From NCBI GenBank assembly GCA_024679065.1, contig JAGIQG010000009.1, positions 81,344,001-81,408,000 of the forward strand: a stretch of DNA of 64,000 bases, given 5' to 3'. Position numbers and translations under genes: made by a program. The notes beneath the pieces were generated by a model, which did no database searches, had not been told where the DNA came from, and was given only the letters and a program-made list of their open reading frames with translations. Positions 2,331-33,194 of the stretch are shown in pieces. The stretch comes from Sphyrna mokarran (lineage: Eukaryota). Every line of letters begins with the position of its first letter. Within the stretch, counting starts at the first letter, position 1.

Positions 2331-2385
2331 TCCCTCATATGTACAATAGAAAGAAACTGCTCCACATCGACCATGATGTCCATGT

Positions 2386-8499: not shown

Positions 8500-8640
8500 A
8501 AACAAACATCAGCGATGGAGTTGTGGAGAGACACAGAAAGAAACTTTAGTAAAAGTCAAACCAGCTTTCCTGTCATCGTCATTGCTTGTGCACTTTGACC
8601 CGAAGCAAACCATTCGGAATCATTTGTGGCCTCGCCGTAC
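8500..8640 (+). mobile_element. Gypsy pol fragment (RT-RNaseH connection)
   Basis: KHQRWSCGETQKETLVKVKPAFLSSSLLVHFDP; paralog at 57130-57270. Confidence 0.6.
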
Positions 8641-9218: not shown

Positions 9219-9434
9219 TGGCACGGTGGCACAGTGGTTAACGCTGCTGCCTCACAACGCCAGGGACCCAGGGTCAATTCCAGCATCGGGTCACTGTCTG
9301 TGTGGAGTTTGCATGTTCTCCCCATGTTTGTGTGAGTTTCCTCAGGGTGCTCTGGTTTCCTCCCACAGTCCAATGATGTGCAGGTAGACTGATTGGCCAT
9401 GCTAAATTGCTCCTTAGTGTCAGAGTGACTAACA
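9219..9434 (+). mobile_element. 5' part of an HE1/V-SINE, cut by the assembly gap
   Basis: ggcacggtggcacagtggtta head and V core; ends at the N-run. The matching 3' part is at 32877-32977(-). Confidence 0.85.
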
Positions 9435-9489
9435 NNNNNNNNNNNNNNNNNNNNNNNNNNNNNNNNNNNNNNNNNNNNNNNNNNNNNNN
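9435..9489. other. Assembly gap (55 N)
   Basis: N-run; the adjacent 9490-9800 is indel-rich relative to its paralog at about 54060-54385. Confidence 1.
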
Positions 9490-11348
9490 ATTCACAACTC
9501 CTCAATATGAACAGGAACATTCATGCCACTCATACCACGGAATCCATCTCCAACAAGAAGAATTTTAACATCTCCCTTGACCATTCACGTCATTACCATT
9601 GCTGATGCCCCACTGTCAAATCCTGTTGGTTATGATTGACCAGAACTTTTTTTGAATTGGACCAGCATATAATACTGTGGCCTACAAGAGAAGTCAGTGG
9701 ATAGGAAGCCTTGCAGCGGTAACTCACATCCTGATTCTCCAAAGCCTCTCCACATCTACAAGGCACAAGTCTGGAGTGTGATGATACTCTCCACTTGTCT
9801 GGATGAGTAGAGCTCCAGCAACACTCAAGAAGCTCAACATTATCCAGAACAAAGCAGCCCCACTTGATTGGCACCCCATTCACAAACATTAAATCCCTCC
9901 ACCACTGTCGAACAGTGGCAGCAGTGTGTGCCATCTATAAGATGCCCTGCATGAACTCACCAAGGTTCCTGAGACAACCATGACCACTATCATCTGGAAA
10001 GACAAGTGTAGCAGATCCCTGGGATCAACATCACCAGGAGATTCCCCTCCAAGCCACATGCCATTCTGAAATGGAAATACATTGAACATAGAACATTACA
10101 GCGCAGTACAGGCCCTTCGGCCCTCGATGTTGCGCCGGCCAGTGGACCCTCTAACCTAAACTATTCCAATATCATCCATATGCCTATCCACCGAACATTT
10201 GAATGCCCCCAAAGTAGGTGAGTCCACAACTGCTGCAGCAGGGCATTCCACGCTCTCACCACCCTCTGTGTAAAGCACCTGCCTCTGACATCCGTCCTAT
10301 AACTACCACCTCTTAATGTAAATACATCTCTGTTCATGCACTGTCGCTGGGTCAGAATCCTGGAAATCCCTCCCTAACAGCACTGTGGGTGTATGTACAC
10401 CTCATGGACTGCAGCAGTTCAAGAAGGCAGTTCTTCACCACCTTCTCAAGGACAATTAGGGATGGGCAATAAATGTTGGGACAGCCAGTGACACCTACAT
10501 CCCGTCAATGAATACATTTTTAATAATTCCTACTTTACACAATGTCCCATTCTGTCTGTTGAAGTCTGGATCCTGTCAGCAGGATATTTGACTGCAAAAG
10601 CCTTCACCACTGTCCCCAACCAAAACTGACACAGAACTGGAAATTATATAGCACCTTAGTATATAACATAGCCCATTATGTTTCACAGAGCAGCATATGA
10701 GGAATGGAGGAGGGGCTGGGGGTAGTTTAGGAAGAGAGATCAAAGGCTTGGGTGAAAGAATGGAGTTTGATGAGGAGAAAGATTTGAAGAGAGGGACAGA
10801 TGAAGGGTGGGAGGACAGAGAGCAAGGCCTGGGTGTTTGAAGACTCTGCTGTCAATGATGGGATGCAGGAAGCAGTGATGGGCCAGGGAGCAGAGTCGAT
10901 AGATGGAAGGTGAGGGAGAAATGTGAATCTGGAGCATGATAGGGGGGAGTGAGGCCATGGAGAGAATTAGAGGGCAATGAGGTCAGGGATGAAAGATAAA
11001 TGAGCTCAGGAGTGATTGATCACTGAGATCACGGGTGATAGATCAGTGAGGTCAGGGGTGATAGATCAGTGAGGTCAGGGGTGATAGATCACAGAAGTGG
11101 GGGTGGTGTTGGAACGACACTTGGTCTGAGATAGACTCTGGACCTACTGCAATTGGGACAAGATGAGGTTTATGGAGTGTGGATGAGGGGAGCTAGGAGG
11201 GGATATTGAAATAACAGAGTGAGCACGTTGGACATGCAGGGATAAGGGTTACTCTACTTCAGGGAATGATGTAGTGTCGAGACGGATAATGTTGTGGAAA
11301 TAAAAGGCCAACATGATGGAGAGGATGTGGAGTTTGAAGCTCAGCTGC

Positions 11349-11716
11349 TGGAGGCTCCAGTGGGAAGGAGGCCCATGTTTATTGGTCCCTATTGGAGACT
11401 CCAGTGGGAAGGAGGCCCATGTTTACTGGTCCACATTGGAGGCTCCAGTGGGAAGGAGGCCCGTGTTTACTGGTCTCTATTGGGGGCTCCATTGGGAAGG
11501 AGGCCCATGTTTACTGGTACCTATTGGAGGCTCCAATGGGAAAGAGGCCCATGTTTACTGGTACCTATTGGAGGCTCCAGTGGGAAGGAGGCCCATGTTT
11601 ACTGGTCCCTATTGGAGGCTCCAATGGGAAAGACGCCCATGTTTACTGGTCCCTATTGGAGGCTCCAGTGGGAAGGAGGCCCATGTTTACTGGTCCCTAC
11701 TGGAGGCTCCAGTGGG
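11349..11716. repeat. 44-bp minisatellite (cluster B copy)
   Basis: Reverse complement of the 2386-2753 unit. Confidence 0.95.
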
Positions 11717-11759
11717 ACATGGACATCATGGTCGATGTGGAGCAGTTTCTTTCTGTTAT

Positions 11760-13700
11760 ACAAATGTCATTGTCTTCTTTGTGGAAGTCACAAAATGGAT
11801 AAAGGGGAACTTATAGCCATGATGTACAGGGAATTCGAAAAGGTATTTGATAAATTACCACATCAAATGTTACTACACAAGATATGATGGTGCGTGGGTA
11901 ACATATTAGCATTGATAGAGGATTGGTTAGCTCACAAAAATGAGAGAGAGGGATAAATGATAGATTTGGGGTTGGGAAGCTGTGATTAGTGGAATTCTGG
12001 ATTAATCAGTACTGGGACCACAACTATTCACAATCCATATCAATGACTTGGATGAAGGGAATGACTTGAACTAATGTTCCAATGACACTGAGATAGGTGG
12101 GAAAAGTAAGTTATCAAGATGAGGTAGAGAATCTATAAAGGATAGAGGCAAGAGAAATGAGTGGCTAAACATGTGGAGTTCAACCTGTGTAAATGTGAAG
12201 GTGTCCATTTTAATAGGAAGAATAGAAAAGCAGTGAAATGGAGAGAGTTTGCACAACTTGGTGCTACAGAGGGATCTGGCTGTCCTGGGACATGAATCAC
12301 AACAAGTTAGTCTGCAGCTACAGCAAGTGATTAGGAAAACAAATGGAATGTTGGTGCTTATTACAAGGAGAATGGAATATAAAAATAGAGAAGTTTATTG
12401 CAGTTGTACATGGTCTCAGTGAGACCACATCTGGAATACTATGTACAATTTAGTTCTCTTTATTTGAAAAAGGGATTTCATTGTGTTAGAAGCAGTTCAG
12501 AGAAGATTCACACAACACATTTCTGGGTTGAGGGGTTATCATTTGAAGAAAAGTTGGAAAGGTTGGGCCTGAACCCATTGGAGTTTAGAAAAATGAGAGG
12601 TGATCTTATTGAAACATATCAGATTGTGAGGGGATTGACAGAGTGGATCCCAGGAGGATGCTGCCTCTTCTGGGACAGAGTGAGATGTGAGTACAGAGGA
12701 ACAAAGAGAATGAATGATGTGCCACAGGGATCGATGAAGGGTCCATTGTCATTTGTCATTTATATCAATGATTTGGATGAGAATATAGAAGATATGGTTA
12801 GTAGTTTTACAGATGACACCAAGACTGGTGGCATAGTGGACAGTGAAGAAAGTTATCTCCAATTGCAACCTGAATTGGACCAGTGGGCTGGCGAATGACA
12901 ACTGGAGTTTAATTTAGATAAATGCGAGGTGATATATTTTGGTAAATTGAACCGGGGCAGGACTTACTCAGTTAATGTTCGGGCATTGAGGAGAGTTACA
13001 GAACAAAAAAACTAAGGGTACGTGTTCATAGCTCCTTGGAAGTGGAGTCACAGGTGGACAGGGTGGTGAAGAAGGCATTCGGCATGCTTGGTTTCATTGG
13101 TTAGAACATTGAATACTGAAATCGAGACATTTTGTTGAACTTATAGAAGACATTAGTAAGGCTACACTTTGAATACTGTATATACTTTTGGTCACCCTGT
13201 TATAGCAAGGATATCATTAAATTAGAACGAGTGCTGAAAAGATTTATCGAGAATGGTACCGGGACTTGATGGTTTTGGTTATAAGGAGAGGCTGGAATTT
13301 TTCTTCTGGAGCATAGAAGGCTGAGGGGTGATCTTACAGAGATCTATAAAATAATGAGGGGCACAGATCAGCTAGACACTCAATATCTTTTCCCAAAAGT
13401 AGCGGAGTCTAAAACTAGAGGACATAAGTTTAACAAGACAAGGGAGAGATACAAAACTGCACAAAAGGGCAATTTTTTCACACTGAGGGTGGTGAGTGTC
13501 TGGAACAACCTGCCAGAGATAGTAATAGATTCAGGTGCAATTTTGTCTTTTAAAACACATTTAGACAGTTCCATGGGTAAGATGGGTATAGAGGGATATG
13601 GGCCAAACATGGGCAATTATGGTTACGGGTTTAAAAAAACTGGCAGCCTGGACACGTTGGGCTGAAGGGCCTGTTTCTTCCCTGTAAACCTCTCGGACTC
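11760..13700 (+). mobile_element. Decayed CR1-type LINE fragments
   Basis: FEKVFDKLPHQMLL, VPQGSMKGPLSFVIYINDLD, FTDDTK, FFTLRVVSVWN. Confidence 0.85.
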
Positions 13701-13709
13701 TATAACTTT

Positions 13710-14093
13710 ATGAGATAAAGTGAGGGAGGAACTGAGAGGAATAGAGAGAGGGAGAATGAGAAGGGAGAAAGAAAGACTCATTGAGAGGGTAAACAAAGAG
13801 AGTGAGACAGGAAGGACAAAAAAGTGAGACAGCAAGAGTGTTGTGGATAGAAAGAGAGACAAATGAAGAGTTACTCAGAGATTGAAAGAGACAGCAATTG
13901 AGGGAGTGATAGAGTGAGGGAGACAGAGACTGAGGGACAGATATCGAGAGAGAAAGACTGAGAATGAGAGAGAGAGAAACTGAGAGACAAATACAGAGAG
14001 AGAGAAAGAAAGAGAAACCAACGGCGAGTGAAGGACAGATTCTGAGGGACAGAGACTGAGGGACAGAGATTGAGGGATAGAGAGAGAAGAAGA
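13710..14093. repeat. GA-rich low-complexity tract upstream of the V promoter
   Basis: (GA)n and gagggacagagact units; mirrored at about 170-570 and 49775-50150. Confidence 0.8.
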
Positions 14094-14187
14094 GGAAGTG
14101 AAAGGTGCTGACGTGGTTTCTCTGGGTCAGACCATTTACAAACTGAGGAACAGGCAGTGAGACTCTCACAGGCTGCAGCTTTATAAA
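14094..14187 (+). promoter_or_regulatory. V promoter of cluster B
   Basis: GGAAGTGAAA 14094-14103, TGACGTGG 14109-14116, ATTTACAA 14134-14141, TATAAA 14182-14187, about 60 bp before the ATG. Confidence 0.7.
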
Positions 14188-14246
14188 GCAGAGCCCAGTG
14201 AAGGGAGAGTTTATCAGTAACAGGCACAGGGACACGAGCACACACC

Positions 14247-14295
14247 ATGATTTCAGCCATCCAGCTGCTCTGGTCTCTGGCATTCTGCATCGCAG
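14247..14295 (+). CDS. IGKV: Ig kappa leader exon, cluster B (MISAIQLLWSLAFCIA-G)
   Basis: Kozak-like caccATG, hydrophobic 16 codons plus 1 nt, phase-1 donor CAG|gtact, in frame with the V exon. Confidence 0.92.
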
Positions 14296-14481
14296 GTACT
14301 AATCTCTCTCCTTCCACCTTGAATATTTTCCTGCTCTCCATTTCAATCCAATTCTCCTGACTTGTGATTGAAGGGAAAATGTTGAAAGGAGAGGAACAGT
14401 CAGTGTCTTCAACAATATCTCATTGTACAGCCTCTTTCTGTGACAGTTCTCACTTCACTCTGTTTCTCTATTACCCCTCAG

Positions 14482-14780
14482 GTATCAATGGAGAGGTCAT
14501 CATGACCCAGACCCCCGCGGTGCTGTCAGTGAGCCTGGGCCAGACCGCCACCATCACCTGTACGGCCAGTGAATCTGTTAGCAGCTATGTGAGTTGGTAT
14601 CAACAGCGAGAAGGACAGAAACCGGCTCTACTGATCTATGACGCATCAACTCGATTCACAGGAGTATCTGACCGATTCAGTGGCAGTGGATCTGGGACAA
14701 GTTTCACCCTGACAATCAGCAATGTTCAGAATGAGGATGTTGCTGATTATTACTGTCAGCAAGGATACAGCTACTCACTA
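14482..14780 (+). CDS. IGKV: Ig kappa (type III/NS4-like) V exon, germline unrearranged, cluster B
   Basis: Acceptor ctcag| then [66 protein letters not shown], abutting a 12-RSS. Confidence 0.97.
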
Positions 14781-14808
14781 CACAGTGATACAGAGCCTTA
14801 CAAAAACC
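14781..14808 (+). other. V recombination signal sequence, 12-bp spacer
   Basis: CACAGTG-atacagagcctt-ACAAAAACC, perfect consensus. Confidence 0.98.
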
Positions 14809-14811
14809 CCA

Positions 14812-15235
14812 ACACACAGAGCACCACCTCCTGTACTGATACATCCCACAGTTTTATATAATATATAATAATGGACACACAGTCCCACCTCCTGTACTGA
14901 CACATCCCACAGTTTTATATAATATATAATAATGGACACACAGTCCCACCTCCTGTACTGACACATCCCACAGTTTTATATAATATATAATAATGGACAC
15001 ACAGTCCCACCTGTACTGACACATCCCACAGTTTTATATAATATATAATAATGGACACACAGTCCCACCTCCTGTACTGACACATCCCACAGTTTTATAT
15101 AATATATAATAATGGACACACAGTCCCACCTCCTGTACTGACACATCCCACAGTTTTATATAATATATAATAATGGACACACAGCACCACCTTCTGTACT
15201 GACACATCCCACAGTTTTATAAAATATATAATAAA
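14812..15235. repeat. 61-bp minisatellite x7 between V and J
   Basis: Unit cacagtcccacctcctgtactgacacatcccacagttttatataatatataataatggaca. Confidence 0.95.
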
Positions 15236-15509
15236 CACAAGAAAGGAAACTGAAAAAATTATTTGCACTGTCCGCTACACACTCCAGTCCCTGTCGTTTC
15301 CATTGCTCGCTGAAGGCCTCGAGTTTCCCTCTTACTCTCCATGTTCACACATGAAGAGCAGCTGAAAGATTTCTCGTCTTAAATTAGAATTCTCAACTCT
15401 CCCAATAAAACACAGGGATATTGAGAGTAACAGAGAGAGAGAAACAGGGAGACAGAAAGAGTGAGAGAGAAAGAGATGAGTGAGTGAGTGAGTGAGTCAG
15501 AGAGACAGA

Positions 15510-15548
15510 GGTTTTTGTACAGCTCCTGCACTGGAAGCTGTCAGTGTG
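15510..15548 (-). other. J recombination signal sequence, 23-bp spacer
   Basis: GGTTTTTGT-23 bp-CAGTGTG (heptamer CACACTG, one mismatch to consensus). Confidence 0.95.
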
Positions 15549-15583
15549 CCTTACGTTTGGTAAAGGAACCAAACTCAGACTGA
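15549..15583 (+). CDS. IGKJ: Ig kappa J segment, cluster B (LTFGKGTKLRL)
   Basis: FGXG motif after the 23-RSS; phase-1 donor A|gtaagt matches the phase of the C exon. Confidence 0.96.
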
Positions 15584-16119
15584 GTAAGTAAAGCCCAATC
15601 CTCCGTTATTAACCCTTTCAATGCTGAAACTTTCTCAAACACAAATACTGAATAGTTGAAGGTGTTAGTGAGGAAGTTACAGTCAATGAAATGGTTGATT
15701 GAAGAACATTGTGTAGAACAGGGAGTCCAGCTGTATTTCTTTCCTTCCATTCCCCCCTTTAAACAGCAAGATTTCAGTAAGCAGCTTTTACCCACCGTGT
15801 GGAGGAGATCTGGACGTTTGCAGACTGTGTTCACATTCCTGCAGCATGGAGTGAAATCACTCTCTAGACTCCTGTCGGTCTCAGTGTGACACACACAGGC
15901 AGAGTTTGATGTGAAGTTGAACTCTCTGTCTCACTCTCTGATATAACTGATCACAGCAGCAGCACAGTGAGACACCGAGGTGTCACCTGCCCCAGCTTTC
16001 ACTCTGCTCTCTCCACTCCCTGCTTCTCTCTTGCTGAAGTTCTGATGACAAACAGCCACAGCAGGGCTCACAATCCAGTGGCTTCAGTGTTCCAGGCTTT
16101 TGTTACTTTCTCTTTGCGA

Positions 16120-16205
16120 TGAGTTCAGGCCAATATTTATCCTGGATCCAACATCACTGAAAATGCTGATTGCTATATGTGGGATCTTGCTGTGTACATG
16201 TTGTA
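16120..16205 (+). mobile_element. Deu-domain SINE remnant in the J-C intron
   Basis: ggccaatatttatcc..caacatcact..gtgggatcttgctgtg resembles the Deu core and the copy at 20450-20710. Confidence 0.5.
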
Positions 16206-16399
16206 ACCAGTCCTCAGACAGGATCCCTCATTTGTTAACTTCCTGAACAGGATCCCAATTTTGTTTTCCTCTGGGTGAGGAATAATCAGCTGGAATCCTG
16301 CCCTCGATTGGTCACAACACAGATCATTTAAAATGGATCCCTTCACTGTGAAAACCTTACACAGTCCGTGTAGTTTTTTATTAGCCATTGAATCCCTAC

Positions 16400-19300
16400 A
16401 GTGCAGGAGGAGGATATTCAGTCCATTGACAGAATTATGAGAGACAGAGATAGGGTAGATATGAGGAAACTTTTCTCGTTAATCACAGAAGCAGCAGATT
16501 TTGAGAGACGTGAGGGAAATCTTTTCACCCGATTCTCCAAAAGAGCTTCTTACCCAGGCTCCCTGTAACCCTGCACATTTACCATTGCTAACCCACCTAA
16601 AGAACACACGAGGGGCAATTTAGCATGGCCAATCCATCTAACCTGCACATTTTCGCAATTACTCAGAGGGTAGTGAGGACATGGAATGCTCTGCCTGCAG
16701 CAGCTGTGGACTCACCAATTTTAAAAGCATTCAAATGGTCAGTGTATAGGCATAGGAATAATATTGGATTAGTTTAGGTTAGAGGGTCATTAGATTGGTT
16801 TCATTGGTCAGCACAACATTGAGGGCCGAAGGGCCTGTACTGCACTGTAATGTTCTATGTTCTATGCACATCGGAATTTTCCAGAAAATAGTAATTTTAC
16901 ATTCTCATCATTTACCTCTTGGCTCAGTCAGAATGCCATTGAAATTTACAGCACAGAAAGAAGCCCTTCAGCCCATCCTGTCTCTGCCGGCCATCAAGCT
17001 CCTAATTATTCTAATCACATTTTCCAACACTTGATTCATAGCCTTGTCGGCTTTGGAATTCCAAATGCTCATCTAAATGATTCTTAAATGTTGTGAGGGT
17101 TCCTGCCTCTAGCACCCTTTCAGGTAGTGAGTTCCAGATTCCCAACACCCTCTGAGTGAAAAGGTTTTTCCTACAATCCCTCAAAATCTTCTGCTTCTGA
17201 AATTAAATCTATGCTCCCTGGTTTTTGAATCTACTGCTCAAAGGGGAAAAGTTCCTTCGTATCTGTTCTATGTCTTCATAATTTGGATGTGCTGCAGTTA
17301 TACAGGGCTTTGGTGAGGCAGCACTGGGAATATTGTGCACAGTTTTGGTCTCGCAATCTCAGGAAGGATATTTTGCTCTAGAGAGAGTGCAGAGAAGGTA
17401 TCCCAGACAGATTCCTGTTATAATGGGACTGATGTATGAGGAGAGATTGAGCTGGTTAAGACTTATATTCACTGGAATTCAGAGGAATGAGGAAATATCT
17501 CATGCAGACTTATAAAATTCGAACAGGTTAGGGGGAATAGTGAGGTAAATACATGGGGTTTATGGGGTAAGAGTTGATGCAGACTCGATGGGCCGAATGG
17601 TCTCCGTCTGCACTTTAGAGATTCTATTGACCATGTCTGTGCCGGCCATTAAGTATCTATCGATTCTAATCCCATTTTCCAGCATTTGGTCCGTTGCTTT
17701 GTTTGCTTTGGAATTTCAAGTGCTCATCTAAAAGCTTCTTAAATGTTGTGAAGGTTCCCACCTCCACCATCCTTTCAGGCAGTGAGTCCCAGATTCCCAG
17801 CACCCTCTGAGTGAAAAGATTTCCCTCAATTCCCTCAGAATCTGTTGCCTCTGTGATTCAGGGGAAAAGTTTCCGGCTATCTACCCTATCCCTGTCCCTT
17901 GTAATTCTGTCTTTCTGCAGTTATACAGGGCCTTGGTGAGACCACACTGGGAATAATGTGTACAGTTTTATCCCATCATCTGAGGAAGAATGCTTTTGCA
18001 ACAGAGGAAGTGCAGCAAATGTTTACTGGAATGATTTCTGTGATAGTGGGATTGATGTAGGAGGAGAGATTGCATTGGTATTTTTTTTAACTTTATTTCT
18101 TAGTCACAAGTAGGCTTACATTCACACTGCAATGAAGTCACTGAGAAAATAGCCACATGGCCACATTCCGGTGTCTCTTCTGTCGGCGAATTTAACTTTG
18201 CCAATTCACCGAACCTGCACACCTTTTGGACTGTGGGAAGAAACGGTAGTACCTGGAGGAAACCTACGCAGACATGGGAAGAATGTGCAAACTCCACACA
18301 GACAGTGAGCCAAGCTGGTCATTGAACCTGGGCCTGTGACACTGTGAGTCAGCAGTGCCAACCACTGTGTCACCGTGCTGCCCCACTGCAGTTCAGAAGA
18401 ATGATGGGGATCACATAAAAACCTATAAAAGTCCAACGGGAATAGTCAGGAGAGATACAGAAAGCATGTTCCCAATGCTGGGAGTGTCCCGTTTGAAGCA
18501 TCATAATCTGAGAATATGGGGTAAACCTTTTAGGACTGAGGTGAGGAGAAATTCCTTCACCTAGAGAGGGATAAACCTGTGGAATTCACTATCACAGAAA
18601 GCAGCTGAGGACAAAATATTATACATTTTCAAGAAGGAGTTAGATTTAGCTCTTGGGGTGAATAGGATAAAATAATTTGGCGGGGAAGACAAGATCTGAC
18701 TCCTTATTGGATGATCAGCCATGACCATGATGAATAGTGGAACAGGCTCAAAGGGCCAAATGGCCTATTCCTGTTCCTATTTCCTGTGATTCTCTGCAGA
18801 CCAGTATTTATCACCCATCCCAAATTGCCCTGGTGAAGATGGTGCTGAGGTGATGGAATAAGTTCTACTCCAATGAGTATCAGCCCAACCTGCTCAACCT
18901 TTCCTCATAAGACAATCCCTTACTCAGTGGAATCAGCCCAGTGAACCATCTCTGAACTCTTTCCAATTCTACTATATCTTTCCTTAAGTACGGAGACCCT
19001 AAGTGTCCACAATATTCTCAGTGTGATTTTCCCAATGTGCTGGAGCAAAACATCCCTCCTTTTATACTCATCCTCATTGGAATGAAGAGCAACATTCCAT
19101 TTGCCTTCCTAATATTTTTCTGTTCCTGGATGCAAACACACCCAGATCACTCGATAGAATTTCTCCAGTTAACTAGTATTCTGCTCTATTCTCCTGCCAA
19201 AGTGGACAACCTCACATTTTCCCACATTATTCCCCATCTGTCGATGTTTCCCCACTCACTGAACCTATCTCTATTCCTTTTCAGACTCTGTATCCTCCTC

Positions 19301-20250
19301 ACAACATGCATTTCTACTTTTCATTTTATCATCAGCAAGTTTAGTGACATTCCTCTCATTCCTTCATCCAGCTCATTAATATAGATTGTAGAGTTAAACC
19401 CCAAACAACAACCATCTTCCTTTGTGCCGGGTACAACTCCAACCAGTGGAGAGTTTTCCCCTGATTCCCATTGGCTCCAGTTTTGTGAGGGCTCCTAGAT
19501 GCCACACTTGCTGAAATGCTGCCTTGATGTTAAGGACAGTCTCTCTCACCTCACCTCTGGAGTTCAGCTCTTTTGTCCATGTTTGAACCAAGACTGTAAT
19601 GAGATCAGGAGCTGAGTGATCATGGTGGAACACAAACTGAGTGTCAGTGAGCAGATTATTGCTGAGTAAGTGCTGCTTGGTATCGCTCTGGATATGTTCA
19701 GATCACATTGCTGATGATCGAGAGTAGACTGATGGGGTGGGTATTGTGTGGTTTGGATTTATCCTGTTTTTCGTGCAGTTCATAACCGGGTAATTTGTTA
19801 CAATGTTGTGTTGATGCCAGTGTTGTAGATGTACTGGAACAGCTTGGTTAGGGACACGGGAAGTTCTGGAGTGCAAGTCTTCAGGACCTCCAGGGAAGGT
19901 CGAGATGGATCATACACTAAGAACTTCTGGCTGAAGATTCCTGCAAATACTTCAGCCTTATCTTTTCTCCTGATGTGCTGGGTTTTTCCATCATTGAAGA
20001 TGGGAATATTTGTGGTGCCTCCTCCAGTGAGTTGTTTAATTGTCCACCACCATTCACGGCTGGATGTGGCAGGACTGCAGAGCTTAGATCTGATCCATAG
20101 GTTGTGGGATGGTTTAACTCTGTCTATCACTTGCTGCTTCTGCTGTTTGGCACACAGTCTCTGTGTTGTAGCTTCAGCAGGTTAACACCTCATTTTTCAG
20201 TATGCCTGTTGTTGCTCCTGGCATGTCCTCCTGCACTCTTCATTGAACTG
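16400..20250. mobile_element. Nested CR1, other LINE and SINE fragments filling the J-C intron
   Basis: (gttctat)n tails, LERVQRR and YEERL motifs, SINE at about 18090-18380(-), LINE RT fragment at about 19400-20250(-). Confidence 0.75.
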
Positions 20251-20449
20251 AAAGCAGCAGAGAATCCACAGAAACAGACTGATGTTTGTCTGATGTGTCT
20301 GTGTGTTTATTAGATGTGACTGAGCAGATAGCAAGTGCTTCAGCAGCAACAAAGATGTTTCTCTAGTTCACTTCCTACTTTCCCCATCCATTTCCAAAAT
20401 CTTCTTGGGGAAAGGGCCAGCACCTGTCATATCCCCCCTTAAACTACAG

Positions 20450-20710
20450 GCCACCCATCTTTCAGATGAGACAATCTGATATCTGCCCTCTCAGAGGGTG
20501 TGAAAGATCCCATGGTACTATTGGAAGAAGAGCAGGGGAGTTCACCCCGGTGAACTGGTCAATATTCATCCCTCAATCAACATCACTACAAATCTGCTTA
20601 TCTGTTCTTTCTCACTCTGTTCCCTGGGATCTGGCTGTGCGCAATGAGCTGTAAAACTCATTGGAACATTCTGAGGTGGTGACAGGTGCTATAGAAATGT
20701 AATTCTGTCT
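20450..20710 (+). mobile_element. Deu-domain SINE (SacSINE1-like) remnant
   Basis: gatcccatggtactattggaagaagagcaggggagttc..caatattcatccctcaatcaacatcact; family assignment recalled, not searched. Confidence 0.6.
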
Positions 20711-22024
20711 TTGAGATTGAAGATTCTCACCCATTCTCCACATACTCATACCCTCCAGAGTTCATGGGGTCATTCGGAGCAGTGACCCTGTCTGACCCCT
20801 GGACACTGAGACTAATTCTAGCCTCACCCTTGACCTCAGCCCAGTGCTGGACAGTAAGGTTTGAAATGAAATCTAGAAGTTTCTACACCAGCCAATGGGA
20901 ATCCTGTGTGAAGTGTGTTGATCCAAGTCTGCTCCAATGTTCTGGGATAAAATTCTCCTGATCTGTGTGTGATCTGAGGTTTCTTGAAGCTCAACTTGTT
21001 TCCCCCAGACAGACTGAGCAATAGTTCCAGCTTCCTGATTGGTTAACAGTCTCTTAAAGGGACACTGTGTCTTTAAATACTCTCACAATTAACCATTTCA
21101 GTGCTGAATTTGCAATAATCATCTTTACAGTTTCAGTAAGATTGCAAAATGATTTAACCAGCTTCAAATCAAACGTTTACCTTCAGACATGGAACTAATT
21201 TGAATTCAAATGTGCCACTTTCCCTCGGATTCCATCAGCTTTTAATTTTAAAAAGCGTGATCTATCCTCCAGTCCACCCATACCACACCAGTACCCAGAG
21301 AGGATTGGAAAATAATGGTCAGAGTCTCTGTTATTTCTTCCTGTTCTTCCCTTCACTTCCTGGGATACATTTCACCCGGCCCTGGGAATTTCTCCATTTT
21401 AAATGGTGATAAACGCATTAATAGCTCCTCGCTCACCATCATTATCCCATTAATTATTTCACAATCCCTCCTCTCCTGAACCACAATGTCAACTTTGTCC
21501 TTCCACACACAAGTTACCTTTTCGCTCTCTAATCAGCCCTATTTAATCCTTAGTTATTCTCTTTGCAATGTCCCATACTATTGCTTGATGAACATATATG
21601 TCCTGAACTCTATCTCCAGCTCGAATATCCTCCCACTGCTCTGACACTGATTTACCTTCAAGTCACTGTTTCCTTTCCATTTTGACAAATTCCAGTTTAG
21701 TGAAATTGACCTTTTCCCATTTAAAACGTTTACTCTTGATCGATCTTTCCCCTTTTCCGTAGCTACTCTAAATCTATTATGATCATTATTACCCAAATGC
21801 TCTCTCACTGATACACCTTCCACATGCTGAGTTTCATTCTCTAAAACTGCTAAAATTGCCCCTTCTCTTGTTGGGATTGTTCCGTACTGGTTAAAAAAGT
21901 TCCTCCAGAGTGGATTTTCGGAATTCTGCAACATCAAATCATTGACACTGATTTGATCCCAGTTAATATTCGGGTTGTTGAAAGGCTGAAAATGGCAGTG
22001 ATTAAAATTCCTTTTCTCTTTCAG

Positions 22025-22353
22025 CTCGTGAGAATTCACAACCCACGCTGACCCTGCTGCCCCCCTCCCCGGAGGAGGTCAAGACCAAGGGCACTGCCAC
22101 CCTGGTGTGCCTTGCCAATCACTTCTATCCCGATGAGGTGGAGGTGAAGTGGAAGAAGGACGGTGCAGCCATTTCCAACGGGGTTCAGACCAGCAATTAC
22201 CTGCGAGCTTCGGACAACACTTACAGCGTCAGCAGCCTGCTGACCCTCTCTGGCTCCGACTGGGAGTCCAACGCTCGCTTCTCCTGTGCCCTCACCCACG
22301 TGAGCCTCTCCTCTCCCCTCAGCAAGAGTGTCAGGAGTTCAGAATGTGCCTAG
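22025..22353 (+). CDS. IGKC: Ig kappa constant exon, cluster B
   Basis: Acceptor tttcag| then (T)RENSQPTLTLLPPSPEEVKTKGTATLVCLANHFYP..W..YSVSSLLTL..FSCALTH..SECA*; C1-set domain with the penultimate interchain Cys. Confidence 0.97.
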
Positions 22354-22726
22354 AGTGTTAGAGACAGTCCACAGAGGAGATACAACTTGGATAGAACAGG
22401 GGTGAGCTGGAAAGTAAAGATCATTGTCAGCATTGAATTACAACCCTCTTCCTGGGACTGGGTCTGAGACACTTCTGAGGGTCAGGGGTTAAAGAACATT
22501 GTTGGGATATTGTAGGGGGAGCTTTACTCTCTATTAACCCCGTGCTGTTCATTTATTGGGAGTGCTGAAGACTGTCAGCTGTACAAAAATAATGTGACCC
22601 TCTGAATTATCTGCTTTAGTGAACCAGACCTCCTTCCTGCTCACCCTGCAGTTACAATTGAAGCTTTAGTCACTGTTTAAAGAGAGAGGATTCTCATGTT
22701 ATTGAGAAAATCTCCACAAGTGTTTT

Positions 22727-22827
22727 AATAAACCTCCATTCTCCCTGTGAATTTCTCCAGCTTCCTCTGGCTGGGCTGTTTATTCAAGTCTTTTTTCTGT
22801 CAATGTCAATGTGTAAAAGGTAATAAA
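22727..22827 (+). terminator. Candidate polyadenylation signals, cluster B
   Basis: AATAAA at 22727-22732 and 22822-22827, both conserved in cluster C. Confidence 0.65.
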
Positions 22828-22954
22828 CATTAAGAATATTCAGTATATGTCTGGTGAGTGCTTTGGAAATGTCCCACCTCCCCATCAGCTGATTGGCTGC
22901 ATTTCACCAAGTGATTGTCCTGATTGGTTGCTTGGACTGTCAATCAATGACACA

Positions 22955-23214
22955 GTAAGCAGTCTGACAACACCCGGTTAAAGTCCAACAGGTTTATTTA
23001 GTAGCACAAACCACTCGCTTTCGGAGCACTGACCCTTCATCAGGTGAGAGGGAATTCTGTTCACAAACAGGGCATATAAGATATAAATTCAATTTACAAT
23101 TTTGTGTTTAATTGCCCTCTTTGTGAACAGAATAAACCTGTTGGACTTTAACCTGGTGGTGCGAGACTTCTTACTGTGTTTACCCGAGTCCAACGCCGAC
23201 ATCTCCACATCATC
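22955..23214. mobile_element. Penelope-like remnant with inverted ends, 12-bp target-site duplication and hammerhead-like core
   Basis: Inverted ggttaaagtccaacaggtttatt/aataaacctgttggactttaacc; ATCAATGACACA at 22943-22954 and 23215-23226; CTGATGA..GAAA on -. Confidence 0.6.
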
Positions 23215-23419
23215 ATCAATGACACATCAGCAGAAGATTGGATTCAAATCCAAACATCAGTTTGATCCGGAATCTCTTGAGTGACAAGATTGAAAACAGA
23301 AAAGAAACTGAAAGTTGCTGGGATTAAACCATCACAATTACAATTCTCCATCCCACGTTCACCACATTCCTCTTGACCTTCCCCTCTCACACGGTTTCAC
23401 GACTCCCATTGTTTCAAAT

Positions 23420-24160
23420 ACAAAGAACAAAAAAGAATCACTGCATCGGAAACAGGCCCTTCAGCCCTCCAGGCCTGTGCTCTCATTGGTCCAACTAGAC
23501 CGTTTGTTTGTATCCCTCCATTCCCAGTCTGCTCATGTGACGATCCAGGTAAGTCTTAAACGATCCCAGCGTGTCCACCTCCACCACCCTACTTGTTAGT
23601 GCATTCCAGGCCCCCACCTCCGCCTGTGTAAAAAACGTCCCTCTGATATCTGAGTTATTCCCCCTTCCTCTCACCTTCAGCCTATGTCCCATCATGATCG
23701 TCACCTCCGACCTTGGAAAAAGCTTTCCACTGTTCACCTTATCTGTACCCTTCATAATTTTGTACATCTCTATTAGATCTCCCCTCATTCTCCATCTTTC
23801 CAGAGAGAACAACCCCAGTTTACCTAATCTCTCCTCATAGCTAAGACCCTCCATACCAGGCAACATCCTGGTGAACCTCAAGGAGTAACTCTTGAAAACG
23901 GACATTGAATTCCCCACCCAGAGTACATTCTGTGTCCTTCCCACCCTCAGTCCTTCCTCCAAATGGTGTTCAACATGGAGGAGAACTGGTTCATCAGCTG
24001 AGGGGGACGTTATGTGGTAACCAGAGGAGGTTTCCTTGTCTGTGTTTGACATGGTACTGAGAGACTACATGGAGTCTGGAATGTTGTTGAGGATTCCCAG
24101 GATAACTCCCTCCTGACTGTATCCCACTGTGCCTTCTGTGCTGGCAGATTGGAGGTAGTG
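23420..24160 (-). mobile_element. CR1 3' fragment joined to an older LINE endonuclease fragment
   Basis: FTRMLPGMEGLSYEERLGKLGLFSLE; the 185-aa ORF is chimeric. Confidence 0.8.
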
Positions 24161-24239
24161 AACACGGTTCACAATTTCCTCCCGTCTCAGTAACAAACAT
24201 CCAGCTGCTCGAACTGGTACAGTAAAACGGTATTGACCA

Positions 24240-24815
24240 TTTCCTGGTGTCAGGTGTAGTGAGTGAGAGGGAAAAATTTAGACTGGGGACTCAAAATGTC
24301 ACTCAATGAAATTTTCAAATAATTAGAAAGATGAAAATGAATTAATTTGCTGCAAGTTATTTAAGCTTTCATCCAGGAGGGAGAGTGAGAGAGAGGAGAG
24401 AAAGACAGAAGCAGAGAGAGAGACAGAGTGAGAGAGAGACAGAGCGAGAGGGTTCCCCTCGGGGAGTTCCTGAGCAGTGACGGGCAGGGACTGAGGAAAT
24501 GGGAGTTTCAGCTGTTTAGATTGTTCCTGTCGGTGTCAGTCTCCAAGATTCCTCCCACCCCCTCCACTGCTAGTGTTTTTATTTCTTTTGAGTCTGAAAG
24601 TTTAATGATGTTCAGATAATTGTTCCCATCTCAGTAACAAATATTCGGCTGCTTCTTTCACTTCCTCTGTTGGTTACGTTTCAATCTTCCAATCTGACAG
24701 TCTTTGGGAAAATATTTCAAAATATATATATAAGAAGCGGATGGGCTCGCTGCACTGACAATTCCGGGCTCGGATCTGTATTCCGCCCGGATCCGGCCCT
24801 TAAGCTCTGATTGGT
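24240..24815. promoter_or_regulatory. Candidate 3' enhancer/promoter module, cluster B
   Basis: CAGGTG 24251, ATGAAAAT 24331, GGGGAGTTCC 24461-24470, GAGGAA, CAGCTG 24509, EICE 24656-24665(-); motif evidence only. Confidence 0.5.
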
Positions 24816-24994
24816 AAAATCGGGCCCAGAGTGAACTCTTTACAACAACAGCTTAAACTTTCAGATTGCTGAATCCATTCCCCCCTCGAGCAGAATGGAC
24901 CTTGTGTTTTTATTTCCAGAGAATCACAAATGGAACAACATTACCAGCAACTTTAAGAAGATTTTTATTCCCACACCATGGTCATGGTTTCGAA

Positions 24995-25320
24995 CCAAGT
25001 GGCACAGTGGTTAACACTGCTGTCTAACAGCTCCCAGGACCTGGGCTTGATTCCCGGTTTGGATCACTGTGGAATTTGCACATACTCCCCGTGTCTGCGT
25101 GGATTTTCTTTGGGTGCTCCGGATTCCTTCCACAGTCAAAGGTGTGTGGGTTAGGTTGATTGGCCATGCTAAATTGCCCCTTAGTGTCCCGGGATGTGGA
25201 GGTTAGAGAGATTAGTAAGGTTAATGTGTGGGGTCGCAGTAATAGGACGTGGGATGGGATTGTTGATGGTGTAGATTCGATGGGCCAAATGGACTCCTTC
25301 TGCACGTTAGGGATTCTGTG
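24995..25320 (+). mobile_element. HE1/V-SINE
   Basis: tRNA-like head, V core and gggattctgtg tail; paralogs at 38505-38830(-) and 62800-63130(-). Confidence 0.8.
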
Positions 25321-25989
25321 GAAAATGATTTAACCCCTTCAGGACCACTGTTATTTTCTACTTGTGGACAGGAGATCTGATATGGACACACAGATCAATA
25401 AGAACCTGACCTTTCAGCAAGAGACCTTTGAGATACAAAGATTTTATTGAAGATAAAGAATATGTGTTAATAAACATGTGGGACTTTTGATCTGGATTCA
25501 AAGCTACACACATCAGGAAGAGGGAGTTTCAATTTTGATCGTGGCAATTATGATTCTTACAAAGTTTAAAGGCTCAGGTTTGGGTCCTGAAATTGTTCTC
25601 AACAGGAAACGTTTATTGTGGAAGGTTTGAGAACAATTGACACAAATCCAAATGCTGAAAGCTTCTGTGCTGAAAGAAGAGTTTAAAATGTGTTTGTCTC
25701 TTCCCAAAATATAAATCCAAAAGTTTAATGGATGCAATTTGTAGCAGGGTTAAAGAAGGCAGCTCAACAATAAAACTATTCGTATCTGGAATCATTTTAA
25801 AATCACCAGCAACAATCTCCAGAGTTACTTTTGAGAGAATAGAATGTTGTTTGAGGTGTTATGACCCACACTGATGTTGAATGTGAAAGGATCTCAAAGC
25901 TCAGAATGGGAACATGGAACACTGGTTCTTAGCAGTGTAGATTTTCACTTTAGTATCCTGTGAGAAAAGTGTGTGAACCAGGGAGAAAT

Positions 25990-26702
25990 ATAGAACATAG
26001 AACATTACAGCGCAGAACAGGCCCTTCAGCCTTCGATGTTGCACCGACCAATTATGAAAAAAGCAATGACCCTCCAAACTAAACCATTCCCTTCTCTTCC
26101 ATAAACTTATCAACTAACCTCTTAAACGCCACTAAACTTGGTGCATATACAACTGCCGCAGGCAGGGCATTCCACTCCCTAACCACCCTCTGGGTAAAGA
26201 ACCTACCTCTGATATCCGTCCTATAACTATCACCCTTAATTTAAAGCTGTGTCCCCTCGTGCTAGCTTTCTCCATCCTAGGAAAAAGGCTATCACTGTCC
26301 ACCCTATCTAAAACTCTAATCATCTTATATGTTTCGATTAGGTCCCCTCTTAGCCGCCTCCTTTCTAACGAAAACAACCTCAAATCCCTCAGCCTCTCTT
26401 CATAAGACCTGCCCTCATACCAGGCAACATCCTGGTAAACCTCCTCTGTACCCTCTCCAATGCCTCCACATCTTTCTTATAATGTGGGGACTAGAACTGC
26501 ACACAATACTCCAAGTGCAGCGGCACTAGAGTTTTGTACAGTTGCAACATGACGTTGCGGCTCCGAAATTCAATTCCCCTACCAATAAAAGCTAAGACTC
26601 CGTATGCCTTCTTAACAACCTTATTGACTTGACTGCCTACTTTCAAGGATCTATGCACAAATACACCAAGATCCCTCCGTTCATCAACACTATTAAGAAT
26701 CC
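25990..26702 (-). mobile_element. 5'-truncated CR1 insertion specific to unit B
   Basis: (tagaaca)n tail, RT C-terminal motifs, AAATA duplication; empty site at about 37835 and 62175. Confidence 0.85.
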
Positions 26703-26749
26703 AAAATAGTCGAGTCTTTGTGTGAATAATTAATACAGAATATTCATTC

Positions 26750-28268: not shown

Positions 28269-31200
28269 TGTAATAAGTGGAGGAGACTGGATTTGGAAAT
28301 AACTAACTAAAGGCTTTACTGATGAGAAAAACTATTTCCAATGAAGGGTTTAACAACACAAGCAGACAGATCTATTACCAACAACATCCTGACTCCAACT
28401 GAAGCCTCCAGTCCCAGGAATGATCACCCTCACTCCCGATTGGCCCAGGTTCACATCCTCACAGTCCTTTGGCTCCGGTCTGGTCATGTGGCCTGTGAAG
28501 GATTGCCCCTTAAAGGGGCCAGGCTCACACACTCCTTCCCCTGGAACATCTTGGACTCCCTGTGATCAAACAAAAACTACAACAGTTAACACACAGGCAG
28601 AGAAACAACAATATTACAGGAGGGACACCAGGGAAAGACAGTTCTTCATGTCAGCTGGTCCAGAGATTTCTGGAACCTTGCGGAACGCTGCAACTCTATC
28701 AGGGGCACTTCAGCAGCCATCGATACAGGATCCACTGATGGGGTGGATGTGCTAACCATCTCTGGAGCTAGGCCCTGGGCAGCTCCTTTTCTCTGCCTCA
28801 CCCACCCAAGCCAGACGCTGCCTTGGCCACACGATGGACATGGAATTGTCTTGTTCAGAGGCTGGTACACACAAACTAGTTACGGGGCCCAATTGCTCAT
28901 CTCCTGGAGCTTGGTCTACTCTCTTGCGTAGGTAACCAATATGTTCCTTAACTCCACAGCCCTGTGTCTCCCCCAAATATGAGACTGGTCCTGTCTTCTC
29001 CACAACTGGGTCCACCATCCAAATTCCCACTCAACATGAGGTTGCCATCATTAAACAATCTGTCCCCTTTCTGAGAGTCACAATACTCTTTCTGAGACGC
29101 TCGCTGAGCCTCCATGACCACCATCACCCCCCTCCGCCCCTGCACCGACAAATTTGGGAACACTAAATCTAAACAGATACACAGGCACCGACCCATTAAC
29201 AACTCTGCGGGTGTGACCCCGACATGATTCTCTGGGAGGCAAGAGAGGAGATTGCAGAGCCTCTGGCTCTGATCTTCAGGTCCTCGTTGGTTACGGGTGT
29301 GGTTCCGGAGGAATGGAGGATAGCGAATGTGGTCCCATTGTTTAAGAAGGGGAAGAGAGACCTTCCAGGGAATTATAGGCCAGTGAGTCTTACTTCTGTT
29401 GTGGGCAAGGTATTGGAGAGAATTATTAGGGATAGGATTTATAGTTATTTAGAGAGAAATGAATTGATGGGGGATAGTCAGCATGGTTTCGTGAAGGGTA
29501 GGTCATGCCTTACTAACCTCATTGAGTTTTTTGAGAAAGTGACCAGAGAGGTGGATGGGGGTAAGGCGGTTGATGTAGTATATATGGACTTTAGTAAGGC
29601 TTTTGATAAGGTGGCCCATGGAAGAATTCTACAGAAAATGCAGATGTGTGGAATAGAGGGTGATTTAGCTAATTGGATTAGAAATTGGCTGGCAGATAGA
29701 AGACAGAGGGTGGTGGTTGATGGGAGATTTGCATCGTGGAGTTCGGTGACGAGTGGTGTGCCTCAGGGGTCTGTTTTGGGGCCCCTGCTGTTTGTAATTT
29801 TTATAAATGATCTGGATGAGGGTATTGAGGGATGGATCAGGAAATTTGCAGATGATACTAAAGTTGGTGGTGTGGTAGATAGTGAAGAGGGGTGTTTTAG
29901 TTTACAGAGTGACTTGGACAAGTTGCAGAGCTGGGCCGAGAGGTGGCAATTGGAGTTTAATGTGGAAAAGTGTGAGGTAATGCACTTTGGCAGGAACAAT
30001 AAATGTGTAGAGTATAGGGCTAATGGTAGGGCTCTTAATAGTGTTGAGGAACAGAAGGATCTTGGTGTATGTGTCAATAGATCCCTGAAAGAGGCAGTCA
30101 AGTGGATAAAGTTGTTAAGAAGGCATATGGAGTCTTAGCTTTTATTGGTAGGGGGATTGAATTTAGGAGCCGCAGCATCATGTTGCAACTGTACAAACCT
30201 CTAGTGCGGCCGCACTTGGAGTATTGTGTGCAGTTCTGGTCGCCACATTATAAGAAAGATGTGGAGGCATTGGAGAGGGTACAGAGGAGGTTACCAGGAT
30301 GTTGCCTGGTATGGAGGGCAGGTCTTATGAGGAGAGGCTGAGGGATTTGAGGTTGTTTTCGTTAGAAAGAAGGCGGCTAAGAGGAGACCTTATTGAAACA
30401 TATAAGATGATTAGAGGTTAGATAGGGTGGACAGTGATAGCCTTTTTCCTAGGATGGAGAAAGCTAGCACGAGGGGACACAGCTTTAAATTAAGGGGTTT
30501 GAGTTATAGGACGGATATCAGAGGTAGGTTCTTTACTCAAAGAGTGATTAGGGAGTGGAATGCCCTGCCTGCAGCTGTTGTAGATGCGCCAAGTTTGGTG
30601 GCGTTTAAGAGGTTAGTTGATAAGTATATGGAAGAGAAGGGAATGGTTTAGTTTGGAGGGGCATTGCTTTTTATTTTGGTCGGCACAACATCGAAGGCCG
30701 AAGGGCCTGTTCTGTGCTGTATTGTTCTATGTTCTATGTTCTATGTTCTATGACCCCAGTGATGGTGTGAGGTGTAGTGTTGTCGGACAGCAAATAACTG
30801 GCCAATCGCAATGGCAGCGGCCCATGAACCTGCTTCACATGGAGCCTTGAACATCAGCATGGCTCGCTCCACCAACCCATTCGAGGCAAGATGGTCGGGG
30901 GCTGGCCTGACATGACCAATCTCATTCGACTTGATCAAAGTCTGAGATTCATCAGTGTGAATGCTGCTCCGTTGTCTGATAGCAACACTTCAGGAAGACC
31001 ATGGATCACAAAGATCTGTCTCAGTTTATCAATGGTAAATGGAGGATGTGATGGGATCTCATGAGCTGATCGTCCAGTCACTTGGAATGAGCATCGACTA
31101 ACACCAGGAACATCTGTCCAAAACCTACATGAAGCCGTGACCAAGGGAGCGTGTTCACTGACGGAGATAACACTTGCTGAGTTGGACAACTCTCACACTG

Positions 31201-31925
31201 CCCAAACATTTGTTCAATGTCTCTGTCAATACCATAACTTCTGGCCAACACTTTCATTCTGTTCTGGCCAGGATGGGCATCATGTAACTCTTGGAGCAGT
31301 GGCCATGCCCAGGGGGTTGTATGCTGACACAGACCTCCCCCACAACAGCTCCCCCTCTTCACAGGGTATCTGGTCCCTGCAATGTAAATACAACTTCATT
31401 TGCTCTGCCTTGTCAAAGTGCCACCTTGTCAGTACCATTTTCTTGCTCTTTGCTAACATCAGCTCCCTATCTGTCCATGCCTGAATGTGGGCTGCTAAGA
31501 CAGGCAGGATGTCCAAATAATGCAGAGCCAATACTATCTCCTGTGGAACAGACGGTGACGGTATGGTCTGTGGTAGCGGCAGGCAGCTCAATGCATCTGC
31601 ATTTGAGATCTGTGTTCCTGGCCTATGCTGGAAGGTTTAGCCGTTTAGTGCCAGCAGCAATGCCCATCTCTGCACCCTGGCAGAGGCAATAGGTGGCACT
31701 GGCTTAATGTCCTGGAAAAGTCCCAACAATGGCTTATGGTCTGACACGATGGTGAAACGCCGCCCATAGACATATTGGTGAAATTTTTCACTGTGTGGAT
31801 AATTGCTGGGCTTTCTATGTCAATTTGTGAATATATTTTGTCAACATTTAACAAAGTCCTCGAAGCAAATGAATTTGGTCTCGCCATCCCATCTTCCAGT
31901 CTATGGGATAGAATTGGTCCAACTC
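28269..31925 (-). mobile_element. Decayed Gypsy/Ty3 LTR element: RNaseH, integrase, PPT, 3' LTR (28269-28531); interrupted by a CR1
   Basis: ILSH..FASRTL..YSQIDIE, LHDAHPG..CESC zinc finger, SDNGAAF, SNGLVER; PPT aggggaaggag followed by a TG...CA LTR. Confidence 0.85.
29224..30750 (+). mobile_element. 5'-truncated CR1 LINE with a largely intact RT domain
   Basis: NYRPVSLTS, QHGF, DFSKAFD, GVPQGSVLGP, FADD; frameshifted after about 30100; (gttctat)n tail. Confidence 0.95.
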
Positions 31926-31929
31926 CATA

Positions 31930-32870
31930 TCGTGTCATAGAGTCACACAGCACAGAAACAGGCCCTTCAGCCCACCATGTCTATGCTGACTACCCAATAC
32001 CAATCTATCCTAATTCCTTTTCCCAGTACTTGGTCCATGGTGATTGAAGAGCTTGTCCAGATGCTTCTTAAATGTACCGAGAGTTCCTGCCTCCACAACT
32101 CTCTCAGGCAGCACATTCCATATTTCCACCATTCTCTAGGTCAAAAATTCTTTCTCAAATCTTCTCTAAACCACTTCTCCCTCACCTTAAACCTATGCCC
32201 TCTGCTCTTACAGTCCGGTGCCATGGAGAAAAGTCTCTTACAACCTACCCTATCTATACATCTCATAATTTTGTAAACCTCTATGAGATCCTCTGTCAGC
32301 CTCCTCTGCTCCAGGGAAAACAATCCCAGTCTATCCAGTCTCTCCTCACAGCTGAAAGTTTCCATCCCAGGCAACATCCTGGTGATTCTCCCCTGCACCC
32401 TCACCAGTGCAATCACATCCTTCCGATAGTGTGGTGACCAGAACTGCGCACATTTCATCCACGGCCTAACCAATGTTTTATAAAGTTGTACCAAATCCTT
32501 CCCCCTCCCATATTCGAAATCCCCCCAGGTAATGAAGGCAAGCATTCCGATTGCCTTCTTCACCACACTATCTCCCTGTGCTGCCACCTTCAGAGATCCA
32601 TGGACTTTATACCAAGGTCCCTCTTCTCCTCAATACTCCCTCGGTACCAACTGTTCATTGTGTAAATCCTATCCTTATTAAATCTCCCAAAATGCATCAT
32701 CTCACACTTATCAGGATTAAATTCCAGGTTTCATTGCTCTGTCCACCTTCCCCATCCTGAAAATGCTCACCACTGACACTTCAACAACTTGCCCAACTTC
32801 ATTCCCGAGGATTAGGTTGACGTACTGACACAAAGAGCTCTCCTGGACTCACTTTACAAATTCCATCCTG
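31930..32870 (-). mobile_element. CR1 fragments
   Basis: LYKTLVRP..QFWSPHYRKD..EERLDRLGLFSLE. Confidence 0.8.
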
Positions 32871-32977
32871 TCTAATCATAGAATCCCGACAGTGCAGAAC
32901 TAGGCTATTCAACCCATCGAGCCCATACCAACAACAATCCCACCCAGCCCTGTCCCCATGATCCCATGTATTTACCT

Positions 32978-33077
32978 NNNNNNNNNNNNNNNNNNNNNNN
33001 NNNNNNNNNNNNNNNNNNNNNNNNNNNNNNNNNNNNNNNNNNNNNNNNNNNNNNNNNNNNNNNNNNNNNNNNNNNNN
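32978..33077. other. Assembly gap (100 N, probably of unknown size)
   Basis: N-run. Confidence 1.
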
Positions 33078-33194
33078 AGATAAATACAAAGAACAAAGAA
33101 TAAAACAGCATGGGAAACAGGCCCTTCGATCCAACGAGCCTGCGCCGCCACTTCGATGGTCCCACTTCTCCCCGTGATCCCTGTCATCCCTGTT

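Follow-up and report, generated by a model that had tools for sequence, protein, structure and literature searches.

In sharks, the organization of immunoglobulin (Ig) light-chain genes in clusters, with rearrangement taking place inside each cluster, is well established (PMC4279169, PMC12227049; these and the other statements on published work refer to the accessible portions of the cited papers). In the nurse shark, about 50 light-chain genes of the NS4 type are present per genome (PMC2193156). On the spacing and orientation of shark kappa clusters, no statement was found in the literature searched, most subscription papers being outside its reach, and none of the places displayed by a keyword search in the supplements of PMC12227049 was a row for a kappa cluster. 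Two further reports concern the assembly of such regions: case 2 of the CloseRead study is an Ig locus with a false inversion beside an N gap, which was fixed by reassembly (PMC12090573), and in scaffolding with Hi-C data short contigs are often inverted, while scaffolders break contigs at drops in coverage (PMC6719893). Here, we describe a stretch of 64,000 nucleotides from Sphyrna mokarran (GenBank assembly GCA_024679065.1, contig JAGIQG010000009.1, positions 81,344,001 to 81,408,000 of the forward strand), referred to as the window and numbered from its first letter, that contains an apparent giant palindrome. Judged from the sequence, this palindrome is very probably an assembly error (we put the probability at about 0.85), in which a gap-bounded block carrying one complete Ig kappa cluster would have been mis-oriented by scaffolding.

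Only two runs of N occur in the window, one of 55 N at 9435-9489 and one of 100 N at 32978-33077. These assembly gaps divide the window into a left segment L (1-9434), the block M between the gaps (9490-32977, 23,488 bp) and a right segment R (33078-64000). One hundred is a round number, and the second gap is probably a placeholder for a true gap of unspecified size. Self-alignment of the window yielded a 16.5-kb inverted match between 9490-25990 and 54384-37837 with 97.5% identity overall. Among the alignments of at least 1 kb, those between the block and sequences outside it are all on the minus strand (9/9), and those between outside sequences are all on the plus strand (4/4); at thresholds of 400 bp and 75% identity, two of the 12 block-to-outside matches are in plus orientation, and both involve dispersed repeats. 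The inversion of the block between its gaps, as claimed in a preliminary description of this DNA, is thus confirmed by the N runs at both ends together with the nine minus alignments, and its proposal that flipping 9490-32977 yields an all-minus head-to-tail array is likewise borne out, as reversal co-orients the units. That description had left mis-scaffolding and a real or polymorphic inversion side by side; the sequence favors the former. It had not named the repeat unit, which is a shark Ig kappa light-chain cluster, and it had not mentioned that one part of the palindrome arm is 100% identical and the rest about 4.4% diverged. Altogether, the window holds two complete and intact clusters and two that are cut by its edges. 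Only the cluster in the gap-bounded block is on the plus strand, opposite in orientation to the sequence on either side; the remaining three units all point the same way.

Reversal of the block restores sequence continuity at the left junction, where a short interspersed element (SINE) and a Gypsy-type region are interrupted. To the left of the 55-N gap, a decayed Gypsy-type connection region between reverse transcriptase (RT) and RNase H, followed by a fragment of a long interspersed element (LINE), occupies 8317-9214 (+). It is adjoined by the 5' part of a SINE (9215-9434, +), which ends at the gap and is 76% identical to a whole copy at 24999-25188. The 3' part is found at 32878-32977 (-), is 74-76% identical to the corresponding part of three whole copies and, as the reverse complement of 32977-32878, supplies what the left half lacks. 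The splitting of this SINE across the two gaps had been recognized before; its start, however, lies at about 9215-9216 and not at 9219. The flanking sequences provide independent confirmation of the SINE-based join, because their matches meet at a single point: 8317-9214 matches 56928-57857 on the plus strand with 80% identity, 32505-32879 matches 58259-57857 on the minus strand, and left and right flank therefore abut at 57857 of a third copy. This is the SINE-free site at which the flanks had been predicted to rejoin. It lies within the 3' flank of a fourth unit (56928-64000, -), the C exon of which would, as deduced from the offsets, be located beyond the window.

The Gypsy-type region also changes strand. 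Its RNase H continuation resides at 31651-31935 (-) and matches positions 40-93 of Pfam RT_RNaseH_2 with E=6.2e-7, on the strand opposite to the 5' part, and in the 57-kb copy positions 3-46 and 40-92 of the same domain match 57122-57292 (+) and 58345-58560 (+), respectively. The earlier claim of a split Gypsy region thus holds for the minus-strand RNase H part, and for the piece at 8492-8680 (+), which is without a Pfam match at E<=1, the support comes from the DNA alignment with the 57-kb copy (80% identity), in which it is included. The labels Gypsy and CR1-type derive from the Pfam domains and the preliminary description, not from a comparison with a repeat library, and are used here as presumptive names. 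When the 13 terminal bases of L were compared with those ahead of the start of the right half in the three whole SINEs, 9, 8 and 7 of 13 bases agreed under the assumption of zero missing bases, as against at most 5, 5 and 6 of 13 at the other 34 offsets. Because the halves of the split SINE fit and the flanks abut, we take 9434 and 32977 to have once been adjacent, with between 0 and about 20 bases lost and zero as the favored number.

In the genome, position 9434 would consequently run straight into 32977 and then through the block in reverse, as indicated by the SINE and its flanks. The scaffolding step would have set the block backwards between two gaps, and the likely route would be a cut of contiguous sequence within the SINE, followed by re-joining. 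The orientation of the block would have been weakly constrained at this step, as the block is short, as its left 9.6 kb are largely identical to the neighboring cluster and as its right end resembles the start of that neighbor. The palindrome would then consist of two paralogous clusters that were made to face each other by the assembly. The contig ends themselves are informative in this respect. The SINE in which both contigs end, at nearly the same base, is an old one with about 76% similarity to its relatives, and at neither end is there read-through into spacer sequence (the best 25-mers have 9-11 mismatches); a stop in the SINE without read-through is what an in-silico cut would leave. 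At the other end of the block, the 294 bases at 9490-9783 differ from 54384-54084 by 15 deletions, 4 insertions and 4 mismatches, the L and R copies of the same stretch differing by 12 mismatches and one gap. Among the 184 tiles with a paralogue, gaps outnumber mismatches only in two overlapping tiles at the 9490 end (tiles with at least 5 gaps considered). Such errors resemble those of raw reads and suggest that the 9490 end is a low-coverage long-read end.

A number of observations weigh against a mis-oriented block. When gaps are allowed in the alignment, the left end coincides with the right start in only one of the three whole SINE copies, and the other two leave the left end 17-23 bases short. 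The 55-N gap falls where about zero bases are missing. In addition, if one of its breakpoints fell within a long stretch of identical repeat sequence, a real inversion might likewise make both contigs end at or close to it. Lastly, the right-hand junction has no sequence support after reversal, the tail at 33078 being a common LINE end. It is true that the reversed 9490 end matches up to 54384, as had been stated, and that a LINE tail follows there, beginning about 77 bp farther on (86% over 63 bp, 54471-54533), but this is no evidence of adjacency: since the block is identical to R up to its error-rich end, the true continuation is expected to be near 100% and not 86% identical. The short LINE 3' end at 33078-33187 (-), which adjoins a Gypsy-type RNase H region, agrees over 106 bases with two other family members at 75 positions each vs. 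72 for the copy at 54455, and its distance to the RNase H region is 110 bp as compared to about 3.9 kb in the intact copy. The short join of 9490 to 33078 that had been implied is hence unsupported. The true continuation of 9490 lies outside the window, and kilobases or whole units may be hidden in the 100-N gap.

The repeat unit was assigned on the basis of its segments and their matches. One V, one J and one C are present per cluster, on the same strand and in V-J-C order, in the two complete sets, and scans of the whole window detected two J motifs and four recombination signal sequences (RSS). The RSS are of the kappa type, with a 12-bp spacer at V and a 23-bp spacer at J; a table compiled for the sterlet gives 12/23 for kappa and 23/12 for lambda (PMC5985310). 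In a protein search with the C region, 23 of 32 matches were named shark kappa, with 83-91% identity, and four were named lambda; the isotype call follows these names, most of which are apparently automatic annotation, and is thus name-based and made without a tree. A search of the PDB with the C exon retrieved general Ig matches that carry no isotype information. Taken together, these features identify the unit, at the level of sequence, as a shark Ig kappa (NS4-type) light-chain cluster. A near-length protein search had returned three matches, two of them labeled bacterial, and a longer-length search gave shark names. The two records (P0001 and P0002) are labeled Aeromonas veronii and Salmonella enterica, and their C regions are 99% and 83% identical to the kappa C region of the window. 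They represent the spliced V-J-C form and are probably mislabeled; P0001, spliced V-J-C with its 99% identical C region, is not tied to this locus.

In the block cluster, a leader exon (14247-14295, +) is followed by a 186-bp GT-AG intron and a V exon with an open frame (14482-14780, +; Pfam V-set, E=1.5e-18). The V-J intervening sequence of 768 bp (14781-15548, +) starts with a perfect 12-spacer RSS at 14781, continues with a minisatellite and closes with a 23-spacer RSS that ends at 15548, directly before the J segment (15549-15583, +) and its GT donor. The C exon (22025-22353, +) has an open frame and a stop and matches Pfam C1-set with E=8.5e-24. The second complete cluster has its C exon at 41485-41813 (-; Pfam C1-set) and leader, V, RSS pair and J at 48276-49619 (-; ATG at 49619, V at 49384-49086, J from 48310). 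Open frames, canonical splice sites and intact RSS characterize both complete clusters, which differ at 0 of 297 nucleotides in V, 0 of 37 in J, 4 of 330 in C and one in the leader. The sole leader difference (14274 vs. 49592) changes S vs. P, and the C regions differ at one residue, V vs. I. Directly after the V RSS, a 61-bp minisatellite of 6.8 copies is found at 14824-15234 and 48629-49042; it lengthens the V-J spacer to about 770 bp. Within each cluster, RAG would delete the V-J intervening sequence between the 12- and 23-spacer signals and join V to J, and the rearranged V-J product would be spliced to C; the anatomy is directly visible, and activity is inferred from it.

A third cluster is represented by its promoter and the start of its leader exon (1-160, -; leader start 2-14, ATG at 14) and leaves the window at the left edge. 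Its promoter differs from 14100-14260 by one substitution and one indel over 160 bases and is almost the same as those of both complete clusters. The 2.3 kb upstream that adjoin this promoter are only about 82% identical, unlike the promoter itself. After reversal of the block, the leader starts are 28.2 kb and at least 21.4 kb apart and all on the minus strand, and the arrangement reads as a tandem array of shark Ig kappa clusters with units about 21-28 kb apart. An Rfam scan of the whole window gave no match at the gathering score, and a scan of 14000-14300 for bacterial promoters and terminators, a method inapplicable to a vertebrate, detected nothing.

The block and its right-hand neighbor are not equally similar along their length. 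Two tracts are without any difference, one of 4490 bp (9784-14273 vs. about 54083-49593) and one of 3130 bp (15984-19113 vs. about 47876-44747). Between them lies an island with leader, V and J (14274-15983) that is about 1% different, with substitutions that look real. Block and R show a few differences at 19.1-19.7 kb, and over 19490-25990, from inside the J-C intron onwards, 287 mismatches were counted in 6484 aligned bases (4.4%). The 3' flanks of the block and of the two R units are at similar distances from one another (5-9%): at 26.7-29.2 kb the divergence is about 5%, and in the RNase H region it is 6.7-9.5%. The block thus has a C half of its own and a V half in common with its neighbor. 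A LINE at about 25991-26703, with an apparent 5-bp target-site duplication, is private to the block, the site being empty in both right-hand units. Another mosaic sign was encountered in R, where an exact 291-bp direct repeat (34080-34370 and 35135-35425) flanks a LINE piece of 755 bp. After the first copy comes the LINE that the block also carries there, and the second copy borders on the empty site; both copies are 7% different from the block. This looks like a join of insertion-bearing and insertion-free versions; 33078-35134 may belong to another unit, and the mosaic supports the notion of assembly trouble.

The identical tracts can be explained in two ways, both of which concern the number of clusters. 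According to the first, which we regard as somewhat probable and which is compatible with mis-orientation of the block, one locus is shown twice and the number of clusters is overstated by one, either because two haplotypes were concatenated, one of them bearing a cluster made chimeric by unequal crossover in the J-C intron (about 19.1-19.7 kb), or because the assembler passed from one paralogue to the other. This would account for the complete identity of 7620 bp that are rich in repeats and mostly neutral, followed by about 4.4% divergence from 19.5 kb on, for the about equal divergence (5-9%) of the 3' flanks of all three copies, for the contig end with read-like errors inside an identical tract and for the exact 291-bp repeat as a second mosaic sign. 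It is less at ease with the roughly 1% island at 14274-15983, which needs further conversion or a consensus of mixed paralogues, and with the 100-N gap, in which hidden units could make both copies real. The other explanation, possible but in our view rather doubtful, is that the clusters are real neighbors whose V halves became identical very recently, through gene conversion or through duplication of several units, over at least 9.3 kb. Templates would be plentiful if the nurse shark, with about 50 NS4 genes per genome (PMC2193156), is a guide. The near-identity of the promoter even in the third, far more diverged unit fits homogenization or conservation of these genes; however, a very long tract or unseen units would be required, and the read-like contig end and the 291-bp mosaic are left unexplained. 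Two other schemes were rejected: a single unequal crossover that left both copies in tandem would need identical 3' flanks of the R units, but those at 33.2-39.7 and 58.4-64 kb differ, and the block is not a plain haplotig of 33078-54384, as the 3' halves are 4-7% diverged and the block has a private LINE and a private SINE.

With regard to orientation, the alternative to a scaffolding error is a real inversion of a whole kappa cluster, heterozygous or fixed, with breakpoints in the SINE and upstream of 9490. The assembly graph would have forked at both breakpoints and gaps would have been left, and the inverted copies would then have been homogenized like palindrome arms. A heterozygous inversion is indeed expected to produce assembly gaps at both ends, and the tracts of perfect identity do fall in the would-be inverted arms. 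Past the paralogue of 9490, at a distance of 240-340 bp, there is even a SINE on the minus strand (54626-54726, 83%) whose core is shared. Its homology, however, stops 18 bases before the break and misses the 3' half, and this SINE is the nearest one on the minus strand in the paralogous position, on which the search for inverted homology was run as the block's own flank falls in the gap; in that copy, no inverted homology of the kind expected for recombination between inverted repeats spans the break. The called sequence contains no novel-junction bases at either end, though these could lie wholly inside the gaps, and the 9490 end resembles a low-coverage read end and not a clean fork. None of the four RSS found in the window scan lies at the breaks, which speaks against a real inversion and led us to reject a RAG-mediated one. 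On these grounds, we consider a real inversion unlikely. A true palindrome that arose by fold-back duplication centered on the 100-N gap would at first sight agree with the 16.5-kb inverted alignment and its 97.5% overall identity, but the divergence runs the wrong way, the arms being most diverged near the center (6.7% at 30.7-31.9 kb) and identical only at their far ends, and the SINE and the Gypsy-type region are split across the block; this origin is hardly credible and was discarded.

Further repeats were noted in the window. Long stop-free reverse transcriptase frames of LINEs (Pfam RVT_1) are present at 55028-56602 (-; 525 aa) and 29200-30135 (+; 312 aa), and their openness suggests relatively young insertions. 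A 44-bp tandem repeat of 8.4 copies is located upstream of each cluster (2385-2753, 11349-11717 and 52149-52517). A LINE-like segment is found at four places with 94-100% identity, including 39606-39721, 56474-56589 and 6216-6800, and comprises 116 identical bases in inverted orientation.

If a scaffolding error is accepted, the window shows a known kind of locus, a shark kappa V-J-C tandem array in which one contig is reversed and one cluster half is possibly duplicated. For curation, this means that cluster counts and orientations taken from the assembly would include a false inverted cluster and a giant palindrome, and the count may exceed the true number by one. It is improbable, in contrast, that the window captures a real segregating polymorphism, an intact V-J-C cluster inverted at a SINE and facing a neighbor, the two having in common a V half that is chimeric or was homogenized very recently. 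A polymorphic inversion of this kind, if true, would place clusters face to face, where V-J joining by inversion between clusters and gene conversion as in palindromes could occur, and would offer a direct view of the turnover of shark Ig clusters. If either the inversion or a chimeric cluster were real, it would constitute testable structural variation in a cartilaginous-fish Ig array.

A scaffolding error of this type has precedents. As in case 2 of the CloseRead study (PMC12090573), an assembled Ig locus contains an inversion that borders on an N gap; that case, however, concerns 1.5 Mb of IGH in a mammal and was resolved by reads, whereas the block measures 23.5 kb, is flanked by gaps at either end and is argued from split repeats only. 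With the orientation errors described for Hi-C scaffolding it shares the short reversed contig between gaps, the use of Hi-C for this assembly being an assumption (PMC6719893). The kappa clusters themselves agree and disagree with described ones in the following way. The V-J intervening sequences of 768 and 775 bp exceed the 502-524 bp given for the nurse shark (PMC2193156); a length of about 500 bp is a typical nurse shark value with shorter forms reported and not a strict criterion, and the lengths found here deviate from it. The 61-bp minisatellite in the V-J spacer is a further difference from the nurse shark NS4 clusters as far as these are described in that report. On the other hand, the C region has 84% identity with a light chain of the nurse shark and with kappa of the horn shark, and as much as 91% with kappa-like proteins of other sharks, the leader intron has the same length of 186 bp as in the split nurse shark NS4 genes (PMC2193156), and each cluster contains a single split V, a J and a C, just as in nurse shark NS4 and horn shark type III (PMC2193156, PMC4279169).

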